Shown: positions 3,653 to 22,309 of the stretch, one piece after another | Position numbering within the stretch: the stretch's first letter is position 1 | How the letters are laid out: every line of letters starts with the position of its first letter | Virus record (IMG/VR): IMGVR_UViG_3300033066_000778 | Coordinates: 1-64,000 of that record | From: a virus | Taxonomy: Duplodnaviria > Caudoviricetes | Reading direction: 5' to 3' (one strand) | Length of the DNA stretch: 64,000 nt | The notes under the pieces: generated by a model | What the model was told of the DNA's origin: nothing | Database searches by the model: none | Seen by the model: only the letters and a program-made list of their open reading frames with translations | Made by a program: the position numbers and the translations under genes

Positions 3653-4343
3653 CCTCTATTAAGTTGTCGATCATGTCTTCTAACTTGATCTTAGCTGTAT
3701 TTTTGGGATCTTTTTCTTTCTTTTCGAAGATATGCCCTGTTTCCAATAACATTTCTTCACCATCACGTCTTGATAGGTCGATTGCCTCTACGTCGAGTTT
3801 AGGTAGTGTTCCCTTAGAGATCTTAGCAGTGAAGTCAAGTAAGGATTTCTTTAATTCCGTTACCTTTTCTAAGTCTTCAAGGAATAACCTTAATCGTGGT
3901 ACTGAGATGTAACAACGATGTGCTTCTTTCTCGTCATCAGTAAGATCATCCCAGTTTTCTGGTTTATCCGGCCAGTCCTCAAAGTTTCTATATTTGAGGT
4001 CACCGTCAAGAGTACGTTCAATCTTGATTCTATGACTGTATTGAATCGCTTCAAGCATAGCAAAAGAATGCTGGTAGAGATCTCCTACTTGATATGAGAT
4101 TTCTCTAGTAACACGCTTTAGTGATTCTTCAGAACGGCGGGAAGAAGTAATGTCTCTTTTTGAAAGCCAACCATACCTTGAAGACCTAGACTCAATCGTA
4201 GAAATAGGAATACCAGTCTTTTCTGAGATCTCTCGTAGAGATACTTCAGTGTTTTCGACTAGATTCTTTGCTAGACCCCAGGCTTCTTCGGTATACTTGC
4301 TTTTAGGACCGGGTTTACCGATCTTGATTATTTCATTACTCAT
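3639..4343 (-). CDS. HTH DNA-binding protein, possibly terminase small subunit-like
   Basis: N-terminal HTH SLREISEKTGIPISTIESRSSRYGW resembles TerS N-termini; function inferred. Confidence 0.5.
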   Translation of the reverse strand: MSNEIIKIGKPGPKSKYTEEAWGLAKNLVENTEVSLREISEKTGIPISTIESRSSRYGWLSKRDITSSRRSEESLKRVTREISYQVGDLYQHSFAMLEAIQYSHRIKIERTLDGDLKYRNFEDWPDKPENWDDLTDDEKEAHRCYISVPRLRLFLEDLEKVTELKKSLLDFTAKISKGTLPKLDVEAIDLSRRDGEEMLLETGHIFEKKEKDPKNTAKIKLEDMIDNLIEDENE

Positions 4344-20896: not shown

Positions 20897-21345
20897 TAGT
20901 TAGTGGACTTATCCTCAGCTTCCTTGATGATGTACTGCGAAATGAATTTCTTAAACATCTCTGAGTGGGGAAGTTCAAGCGTTTTCGTTGCTGTTGCGTG
21001 TGAAGTGCCTCCTGCATCGACAACCTGTGAGATGATTTCAATGTCATCCGCAAAGAGTTTAAACGTAAGTGTAGCATTAAGTTCAAGCGCGGTATCGACA
21101 CGTTTGACAAGATTCTGCTCCTTAAGACACTTCATTAAACCTTCGCGCCATTGACGGTAATCTTCCGTTGATGTTACGAAATCACCGTATTCCATTACCT
21201 TTTTATTAGAGAGAAACCTAATAGCCGTTTCAAGTCTAGCTACAGTACGAAACTGCTCTACTTTAATGTTAGAGAGTTCCTGAGACACTGAGTCAACAAC
21301 GGACTTAAGTTGTTCAACTGTTACATACTGTGGGGTTTCGGCCAT
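20896..21345 (-). CDS. Hypothetical protein, first gene of the replication operon
   Basis: Start moved to MAETP (21345), which follows an AAGGAG SD. Confidence 0.75.
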   Translation of the reverse strand: MAETPQYVTVEQLKSVVDSVSQELSNIKVEQFRTVARLETAIRFLSNKKVMEYGDFVTSTEDYRQWREGLMKCLKEQNLVKRVDTALELNATLTFKLFADDIEIISQVVDAGGTSHATATKTLELPHSEMFKKFISQYIIKEAEDKSTN

Positions 21346-21368
21346 AAAAATACTCCTTAGTACCATGA

Positions 21369-21397
21369 AATATATAGACCCCTATGCACTAAAGCAA
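21369..21397 (-). promoter_or_regulatory. Sigma70-like promoter for the replication operon
   Basis: TTGCTT-N17-TATATT immediately upstream of the SD and ATG; overlapped by an inverted repeat. Confidence 0.65.
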
Positions 21398-21424
21398 GGG
21401 GCCTTATACCGTATTAGTTCTTAA

Positions 21425-21960
21425 AAAATTATGAGGGGGGAGGAGAGAGTACACCGGGGGATTCCCAAAGGATATTGGGTAGGGCTCTTGTTTGAATTTC
21501 TTTAGGAATAACCATAAATCTTAACGTATGAGTGATGTTAATCATAATAGTTTAGGCTCTTTTAGGGGATCTTTAGTGATCCAATTGATTGCTATTGTTG
21601 GTACGCCTCGCCAAGTTAATCGTATCGGTTAGATCGTAAAAACCAGTGGGTACATGCATTAATTAGGGTTAAGATCTTATGGCTCTTCCTAAAGTTGTTT
21701 TGCGCCTCTACTCTCAGTCAGTTAGTCTAAATCCCTACTTGATGACATAGGGTTTCGATAATTTCTTATCGTATCCATATGACCAGGACGTATCCCCCGT
21801 AGACCGGCGATCAATTACGCCTCCGTTGCCTGGGTTTCCTGACTGAATGGTGCCAAAGGTATGATTCTTCTCGTAACGAACCATTATAAATCACCGAAGT
21901 AGAGACAATCGAGCTTGTTTTGGAAATTCGCTCGGAAGCCTCCAACCATGCACAAGAGCA
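21425..21960 (-). ncRNA. Candidate large structured ncRNA (~535 nt)
   Basis: No convincing ORF; many helices including a ~26-bp imperfect stem, GAAA and cUUCGg tetraloops and an 8-bp long-range pseudoknot; own promoter and 3' U-tract. Confidence 0.62.
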
Positions 21961-21965
21961 TGAGG

Positions 21966-21993
21966 AATATATTACCTTTTCGGTGAAAGTCAA
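21966..21993 (-). promoter_or_regulatory. Sigma70-like promoter upstream of the candidate ncRNA
   Basis: TTGACT-N16-TATATT. Confidence 0.55.
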
Positions 21994-22063
21994 GGTTGGT
22001 TATTCAGCAAAGTAGCCTAGTTTAAATGGTACAGGAAGAAGTTTTAGATCCTATCGAGGAGTT

Positions 22064-22309
22064 TCACGTTACAACTACTCCTGTTCTTAAAGAAAACAAG
22101 CCTAAGCAGTTTTCAGAACAAAAAGTAAAAAACGATGATTGTACTAAACCTTTAAATCCAACCGTAACTGTTATCGCATCGCATATTGGTAGTTTGTTTT
22201 TACATGTAATACAAAGTACCAAAATACTAACGTCAAATTGATCGTAAGTTCCGGTTATGTCATGAATGTAGTCTACAGCGATGTCGTTTATTGTACTTCC
22301 TAGTGCCAT
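22064..22309 (-). CDS. Small TRASH/MYM-type Zn-ribbon protein
   Basis: CITC...FCSENC; follows the upstream gene after 4 nt. Confidence 0.6.
   Translation of the reverse strand: MALGSTINDIAVDYIHDITGTYDQFDVSILVLCITCKNKLPICDAITVTVGFKGLVQSSFFTFCSENCLGLFSLRTGVVVT

Follow-up and report, generated by a model that had tools for sequence, protein, structure and literature searches.

The DNA considered here is the first 64,000 nucleotides (nt), the window, of the IMG/VR virus record IMGVR_UViG_3300033066_000778, a phage sequence of 153,958 bp with 41% G+C; our subject is a gene-free gap in it, at positions 21367-22063, from which a structured RNA is predicted to be transcribed on the minus strand. The window is made up of tightly packed minus-strand genes, and the gap is flanked by one open reading frame (ORF) of 81 amino acids (aa) and another of 156 aa, both on that strand. 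Downstream of the 156-aa ORF lie a UvsW-like helicase, a DnaB-like helicase and other replication genes, and on the opposite side of the gap are structural genes, that of a BACON/fn3 fibre protein among them. With the exception of a tRNA cluster at 93-95 kb, the co-directional part of the genome has no other ORF-free gap of large size. No ORF of at least 80 aa was found in the gap under genetic code 11, under code 4 or with TAG read as glutamine. A hidden gene in which TAA encodes glutamine was also considered and rejected: the longer frames need three to eight read-through stop codons, and no convincing frame emerged. On balance we are inclined, with modest confidence, to read the gap as the gene for a stand-alone structured RNA of about 500 nt (from ~21960 to at least 21455, minus strand), a member of an uncatalogued family that would occur once per genome in many unrelated uncultivated phages; this reading is built on comparison of sequences.

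Searching with the two proteins that flank the gap returned no close relatives, and relatives were reached by a homologue search with the UvsW-like helicase and from the contigs on which its matches are encoded. The closest, L002, is a 14-kb contig with a helicase that is 74% identical and a 583-nt gap at the same place. The two gaps align as conserved blocks with variable stretches between them, and these variable stretches retain pairing; compensatory changes are seen in four helices. From the window to L002, CGAGC/GCUCG becomes CGUGC/GCGCG, GGCG/CGCC (the hairpin HPt) becomes GCAG/CUGC, the GAAA hairpin becomes GGUGG/CCACU, AUGGUUC/GAAUCAU becomes UCUUC/GAAGA and CUCUAC/GUAGAG becomes CCUAU/AUAGG; an imperfect stem of ~26 bp in the window is matched in L002 by an equivalent long stem whose sequence differs. 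A preliminary description of this DNA, all of whose listed motifs were found where it had placed them, had already proposed the first, third and fourth of these hairpins and the long stem, and in each case the comparison with L002 bears the pairing out.

Conserved and covarying helices across the family

Public collections were scanned with strings identical between the window phage and L002 and then with the looser pattern CCNNGGCAACGG-N5-TANTNGAT. The first scans yielded two IMG/VR loci (L012 and L014), 18 metagenome loci and two genome assemblies, the latter being the chromosome of Ca. Multivorans and a Paceibacterota metagenome-assembled genome; the looser pattern yielded 40 further IMG/VR loci, ~33 of them true members. 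Together these make up a family of ~55 loci and 42 distinct sequences, with G+C contents from ~38% to more than 60%. The common plan, read 5′ to 3′, starts with the helix Pa, a junction of GAAA, UUU or UUCUCU, the 5′ strand of the helix Pb (CCNGG) and the sequence CAACGG. These are followed by HPt, a hairpin of 4-6 bp with an 8-nt loop UAnUnGAU, by a short linker and the 5′ strand of a pseudoknot, and then by (U)ACGU, the 3′ strand of Pb (CCNGG) and UC, where the signature (U)ACGUCCNGG lies. The plan ends with the 5′ strand of the helix Ps, a variable domain, the 3′ strand of Ps, GGGA and the 3′ strand of the pseudoknot. The pseudoknot is thus a third long-range helix, in which the bases directly 5′ of ACGUCCNGG pair with those directly 3′ of GGGA. 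In the subfamily to which the window belongs Pa is also long-range, and because Pa encloses the 5′ strand of Ps but not its 3′ strand, the two helices cross and the core is a double pseudoknot; in another subfamily Pa is a local hairpin capped by a loop, and this crossing is lost. About 35 nearly invariant bases fall in the junctions and in the one 8-nt loop (CAACGG, UAnUnGAU, UACGU, UC and GGGA).

The helices of this plan covary. When MAFFT was applied to ~300 nt of 16 members only the core was aligned, and the helices were therefore anchored by hand in scripts. In an alignment of 41 core sequences, 96.6% of the cells in paired columns can pair, compared with 78% in shuffled sequences; at the centre of Pb, 27 sequences have an AU pair, 13 have GC and one has UA, and all five pairs of HPt have changed on both sides. 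For the pseudoknot we used a 27-sequence alignment that extends to the 3′ end and has a few rows one column out of register; two-sided changes are seen at each of the six pairs, and 89% of cells can pair. When partners were permuted among members, 3.03 of the six pairs formed, compared with 5.79 for the true partners, and none of 10000 permutations was as high. With the site re-optimised for each cross pairing, a helix of at least 5 bp was obtained for 38 of 38 real combinations and for 32% of the crossed ones. Among the 18 members collected first, the best complement has a GGGA-like motif directly on its 5′ side (GGA in two of them); the later, wider assignment of the pseudoknot used GGGA or GGA as part of the choice of site. 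The other long-range helices behave similarly in permutations, with a summed score for Ps of 677 versus 392 ± 17 and for Pa, among 25 members, of 458 versus 310 ± 16 (0 of 2000 as high). Two pairings that had been predicted from the window alone are thereby placed in the family plan: the crossing pair of 21792-99 with 21455-62 is the family pseudoknot, and CAGUCAG/CUGACUG is the helix Pa. A decayed gene or a chance structure without function would be difficult to reconcile with conservation at ~55 loci of very different G+C content and with compensatory changes in five helices; the covariation contradicts this explanation, which we regard as hardly credible.

A covariance model of the core, R1, matched the window at 21779-21842 on the minus strand with 61.6 bits (E = 2.7e-14). 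This was its sole match in the 154-kb genome, and a single copy was likewise found in every one of five further phage records, which measure 46-68 kb. Judged from their sequences, typical members appear to be ~250-300 nt long. The set that we collected probably falls short of the real family in both size and variety. Among the variants, L047 (7200-7306), L053 (2579-2685) and L070 (2649-2755) have an insertion of ~50 nt between HPt and ACGUCC and score 44.9 bits with R1, and in L057 and L071 the Pb pair is inverted (CCUGG/CCAGG) and the linker is long.

Architecture and limits of the window RNA

All features of the family are present, in single copy, in the window RNA: the core, the pseudoknot, Ps, and Pa with the GAAA and ACUAA junctions that go with subfamily 1. 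The conserved core (21779-21842; this and all following elements are on the minus strand) consists of GAAA, the Pb strand CCAGG, CAACGG, HPt, the linker, the pseudoknot 5′ strand, UACGU, the Pb strand CCUGG and UC, and within it the GGCG/CGCC stem of HPt encloses the loop UAAUUGAU. The pseudoknot 5′ strand CGGGGGAU (21792-21799) pairs with AUCCCCCG (21455-21462), the last element defined by the family, and the conserved GGGA (21463-21466) stands directly 5′ of this 3′ strand. Pa is formed by UUCAGUCAG (21839-21847) and CUGACUGAG (21713-21721). Ps, in the family register, pairs GGAUA (21772-21776) with UAUCC (21470-21474); it is short in the window, with 5 bp, and has only 4 bp in L002. In the family plan Ps begins 4-7 nt past the Pb 3′ strand and ends 0-4 nt ahead of GGGA. 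A pairing CCCAA/UUGGG that had been listed for this region competes with Ps and is doubtful.

Between the Ps 5′ strand and the Pa 3′ strand lie two hairpins and a junction. The first hairpin, CGAUAA-GAAA-UUAUCG (21756-21771), has a GNRA loop, and other members have hairpins with GCAA or GCGA tetraloops at this place. The second, a candidate hairpin CCCUAU/GUAGGG (21733-21752), is identical in L002 and absent from most other members. The junction AGACUAA (21722-21728) contains a sequence, ACUAA or AUAAG, that is conserved directly 5′ of the Pa 3′ strand in the 25 members. An expanded variable arm occupies 21476-21703 and contains the imperfect stem of ~26 bp (21668-21694 with 21500-21525); folded alone, this arm gave z = -3.96. 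The candidate pairing GGAUC/GAUCC also sits in this arm, which is not alignable with L002. The arm supplies the extra length in a distance of 320 nt from the core to the pseudoknot 3′ strand, the longest found, the distance being 73-161 nt in most members. With its variable domain of 320 nt, compared with 85-110 nt in typical members, the window copy is the largest that we found.

The 5′ domain could be resolved for the window and L002 and for a few other members only. It begins with the motif AUGGUUGG (21942-21949), of which UGGUU is kept at the 5′ side in L002, L012, L015, L016, L026, L031 and L062; a pairing UGGUU/AACCA is visible in L012 and L015 and has no consistent placement in the window. 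The hairpin HP1 (21910-21934) follows, with the stem CGAGC/GCUCG and a C/A-rich loop (..CCAAAACAA). Its change in L002 replaces an A-U pair with U-G, and other members have GCGGC/GCCGC, GCAGC/GCUGC or CUGAG/CUCAG in its place, so that this hairpin of the preliminary description gains support outside the closest pair as well. The helix P2 joins GUCUCUAC (21899-21906) to AGUAGAGGC (21704-21712), with two compensatory and three one-sided changes relative to L002; family-wide support for P2 is tentative, with inconsistent registers across members, and the helix is drawn from the comparison of the window with L002. An arm at 21846-21895 is closed by GGUG/CACC (21892-95 with 21849-52), in which one G-C pair has become A-U in L002, and carries AUGGUUC/GAAUCAU (21878-84 with 21861-67). 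A small hairpin AC-UUCG-GU had been placed here, and its bases are taken by the better-supported helices CUCUAC/GUAGAG and GGUG/CACC.

The RNA would start near 21959-21961 from a predicted sigma-70-type promoter, P1 (TTGACT, 16-nt spacer, TATATT; 21966-21993), that matches the consensus at 10 of 12 positions. Its counterpart in L002 (TTGACA-N17-TATATT, 11 of 12) is at an equal distance from the RNA core, the promoter match lying ~132 nt upstream of the core in both. The promoter had been part of the preliminary description; its retention in L002 at the matching distance speaks for it, and the score of 10 of 12 taken by itself is not above chance. A possible 3′ end is a U6 tract at 21423-21428, which is also found in L002. 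The predicted length is ~505 nt from ~21960 to the end of the pseudoknot at 21455 and ~537 nt to the U6 tract. Two further helices that had been proposed to close the RNA, GAGAGUA/UACUCUC and the end pairing GGAGG/CCUCC, both lose their 3′ partner in L002. Folding is specific to one strand: relative to shuffled sequences the fold has z = -2.78 on the minus strand and z = -0.21 on the plus strand. The earlier argument from G-U pairs did not carry over, a wobble test on the pseudoknot and Ps being not discriminating (summed helix length 527 versus 512), and we assign the RNA to the minus strand because of the fold asymmetry, the GNRA loops, the promoters and the neighbouring genes.

A second predicted promoter, recognised by eye, lies ahead of the downstream gene at 21367-21403 (TTGCTT at 21392-97, a 17-nt spacer and TATATT at 21369-74). 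It lies partly within a hairpin GGCCCCU/AGGGGUC (21377-21403), with the -35 box inside the hairpin. L002 has TTGACT-N17-CATATT in an equivalent hairpin (1850-1885), where a C-G to U-A change preserves pairing; the promoter scan of the window did not list the second promoter, and the corresponding scan of L002 did list its counterpart. The 156-aa ORF that follows has its listed start at ATG 21366 (region 21334-21366, minus strand). Its true start is probably 21345, because a strong AAGGAG stands 7 nt ahead of the ATG there.

Stand-alone gene or leader

The RNA occurs in many unrelated gene contexts, antisense and convergent positions included. Clustering of the neighbouring proteins found no recurrent partner protein across the family, which favours a stand-alone gene. 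The neighbours that can be named mostly belong to DNA metabolism (HNH endonucleases, a RusA-like resolvase, helicases and a methylase), and the genes directly downstream, among them HNH endonucleases, a helicase, a ferredoxin-like protein and unknowns, are mutually unrelated. In L036 and L062 the next long ORF is on the opposite strand, in convergent orientation. We prefer a stand-alone gene to an obligatory leader because of these two loci and because a separate promoter is predicted for the next gene in the window and in L002. In this arrangement P1, at the border of the structural and replication genes, would drive the RNA as a unit of its own, and the downstream gene would be transcribed separately from the second promoter; some copies of the family may nevertheless be co-transcribed with the gene that follows.

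Several points weigh against this interpretation. For most members the distance from the end of the pseudoknot 3′ strand to the next start codon on the same strand is short, with a median of ~35 nt, and in L044 the order is promoter, RNA and first gene of an operon; both observations are compatible with a 5′ leader. The promoter assignments amount to consensus matches, and such matches are no more numerous in the region than in shuffled sequences. No terminator, in the sense of a hairpin ahead of a U-tract, was found in the gap. Because members were collected with exact-match patterns from the core, its apparent invariance owes something to the search itself and is overstated. ORF calling in the loci of high G+C is too noisy for orientation to be scored family-wide. 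Finally, the binding pocket and the partner discussed in the next section are ones that we only infer.

The first two of these points are the strength of an explanation in which the RNA is a cis-acting 5′ leader, either riboswitch-like or an antiterminator that modifies RNA polymerase in the manner of HK022 put, and controls downstream genes of DNA metabolism. In L044, GGGA and the pseudoknot 3′ strand can form a weak alternative small hairpin followed by a U run, the window RNA heads the replication block, and a core that is kept across very different G+C contents would suit RNA polymerase or a metabolite as a universal partner. However, the downstream genes do not belong to any one gene family, L036 and L062 lack a downstream gene on the same strand, the window and L002 have the separate promoter, and in the window and the member sequences (a family-wide scan was not part of this) we saw no consistent terminator or element that would mask a Shine-Dalgarno sequence. 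Taken together, these observations make a leader an unlikely alternative. The HK022 putL and putR RNAs resemble the family in being phage RNAs directly downstream of a promoter and in the orientation of the following genes, and put acts through the universally conserved RNA polymerase of the host. In contrast to the family, put is ~70 nt long and has two stem-loops without a pseudoknot; there is no likeness of sequence, and some family members have no downstream genes on the same strand. Riboswitch aptamers of the ZTP/pfl type likewise have conserved junction bases, a closing long-range pseudoknot and an insert of variable length, but here the genes that follow belong to no conserved family, no consistent expression platform was seen, the RNA is much larger and there is no Rfam match. 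In L014 the RNA core is preceded at a distance of ~250 nt by a tRNA gene (4191-4260) in the same orientation.

Relation to known RNAs and to replication origins

The RNA does not correspond to a catalogued class. Comparison with Rfam 15 gave no match at the gathering score in the 64-kb window, no relevant match at E ≤ 10 in the gap region, in L012 or in L014 and none at E ≤ 1 in 16 further members; the models included ROOL, GOLLD, OLE, raiA, HEARO, RNase P, tmRNA, 6S, riboswitches and ribozymes, and a match to the model of any of these families was absent. A blastn comparison of the gap and two core sequences with GenBank phages returned no true match, and ARAGORN found no tRNA or tmRNA in the window. 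The core string had no match in the text of 8.4 million papers, a comparison that did not extend to the supplements of a 2023 catalogue of 10,006 viral candidate RNAs (PMC10690425), and the family may be among the unnamed candidates of that catalogue. The central claim of the preliminary description, that of a large, promoter-driven, pseudoknotted phage non-coding RNA outside the known classes, holds: the RNA is conserved and covarying and lacks an Rfam match. A group I intron, to which AGACUAA and a UAUGG receptor-like motif had drawn attention, was rejected. The Rfam model Intron_gpI has no match at E ≤ 10, the long-range pairings, as we read them, lack the P3/P7 arrangement, and there are no exons, relatives without the RNA still having two separate genes with a 360-445-nt gap between them.

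GOLLD (RF01998), ROOL (RF03087), OLE and the raiA motif are the closest in character. Like the family they are long, intricate, protein-free, often phage-borne and without an assigned function, and they too combine conserved junctions with variable arms. The family differs from all of them in a double-pseudoknot signature of its own (CAACGG, UAnUnGAU, ACGUCCNGG and GGGA) and matches none in sequence or structure. The window RNA had been assigned to the size class of ROOL and OLE; this suits the window copy, whose ~500 nt with an expanded arm fall in the size range of ROOL, but not the shorter typical members.

The position of the invariant bases, in the junctions and the loop around the crossing helices, together with their retention in phages of presumably widely differing hosts, suggests a pocket for a universal partner. 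These bases would converge into a pocket for something that very different hosts have in common, whether a small molecule or a conserved piece of host machinery (RNA polymerase or the ribosome, for example); the variable arm, which is greatly enlarged in the window phage, would then serve as scaffolding. On this basis we offer, tentatively and as a possibility short of an expectation, that the family is a new functional class of RNA, either a ribozyme or a sensor or binder of a universal ligand or host machine, with the pocket made of the junction bases of the double-pseudoknot core. It would be used early in infection by phages of very different hosts and would move between lineages as a single-gene cassette.

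A more specific form of this idea, that the RNA is a ribozyme which cleaves itself or otherwise processes the transcript and has its active site in the double-pseudoknot core, appears improbable to us. It is encouraged by the compact crossing-helix core with invariant junction bases and by the permuted connectivity implied by a Pa that is either long-range or a local hairpin; self-cleaving ribozymes such as twister and hammerhead show natural permutation of the same kind. Several copies also lie directly upstream of HNH endonuclease genes. On the other hand, no Rfam ribozyme family matches and no cleavage site can be named. There is some likeness to HDV-like ribozymes, including the phage ‘theta’ ribozymes. 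These have the order P1, P2, P3, P1′, P4, P2′, with P4 an arm of variable length, and in the window's subfamily the order is similar (Pa 5′, Ps 5′, hairpin, Pa 3′, variable arm, Ps 3′). The family nevertheless has an extra conserved domain (Pb, HPt and the third long-range helix) where J1/2 would be, and GGGA comes after rather than before the Ps 3′ strand, which is the wrong side for J4/2 of HDV. The HDV-like topology, moreover, is confined to one subfamily, the second being without the crossing; there is no Rfam match of HDV type, and no catalytic C or cleavage site was identified.

Very few large and highly conserved RNA folds are known, and each of those characterised to date, from RNase P, the group I and group II introns and riboswitches to the more recent GOLLD, ROOL and OLE, revealed new biochemistry. 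The marks of the present family are its ~35 near-invariant junction bases, two crossing long-range pairings with covariation, permuted connectivity and the lack of a partner protein. A core signature and a covariance model, together with helix assignments and ~42 distinct sequences, now define it well enough for study in vitro, and the small size of typical members (~250-300 nt) suits probing, ligand screens, cleavage assays and cryo-EM.

The site of the RNA between the structural and replication modules, upstream of the UvsW-like helicase, also raises the question of whether it could be an origin transcript that primes DNA synthesis, as had been suggested; ColE1 RNA II and the R-loop origins of T4 would be the models. 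Near 21 kb the cumulative GC skew reaches a local minimum, but its global minimum is at ~114 kb beside a strand switch, and no iterons were found in the window gap. The strand switch lies at ~110-130 kb and is accompanied by a 628-nt ORF-free gap (118827-119454), and this region is a better candidate for the replication origin than the gap at 21 kb. The distant relatives L003-L011, whose helicases are ~50% identical, provide a further comparison. R1 found no copy of the RNA in them, so the distribution of the RNA is patchy. Their gaps at the same site (L003:4086-4530, L005:4117-4558, L007:2292-2726, L008:4049-4435 and L010:4157-4518) combine a TTGACA promoter and a terminator hairpin with short direct repeats and a (CG)n motif, and look like an origin of the iteron type or a regulatory region. 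Examples are the alternating CG motif ACGCGCGCGTGCGCGC, three copies of AGTAATGGTA in L010 and a tandem TAACTATGGTTAT in L008. One intergenic site in related phages can thus carry quite different non-coding elements. The iteron-like repeats and (CG)n in the same gap of these relatives are in keeping with an origin at this site, but the relatives that have them lack the RNA. The family, moreover, occurs in many unrelated contexts, and a primer RNA would not need a conserved tertiary core. The earlier suggestion of a replication primer keeps its basis in position and local skew and is otherwise weakly supported; we consider it quite improbable, and a stand-alone gene for a structured RNA is the reading that we retain.

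Some further features of the region and its relatives were recorded. The 81-aa ORF upstream of the RNA (22064-22309, minus strand) has a weak match to the zf-FCS zinc finger (21.6 bits, slightly below the cut-off). Outside the window, the tRNA cluster consists of nine tRNA genes (93099-95267). The homologues P0012, P0018, P0019, P0021 and P0025 of the UvsW-like helicase (e.g. L010:5001-7499) are ~830-855 aa long and contain intein or homing-endonuclease domains (Hom_end, Hom_end_hint and LAGLIDADG), none of which is present in the helicase of the window. Free-standing homing-endonuclease genes of the GIY-YIG and HNH types lie beside the gap or in the replication module at L008:3548-4048, L010:2443-2865 and L007:8293-8985.

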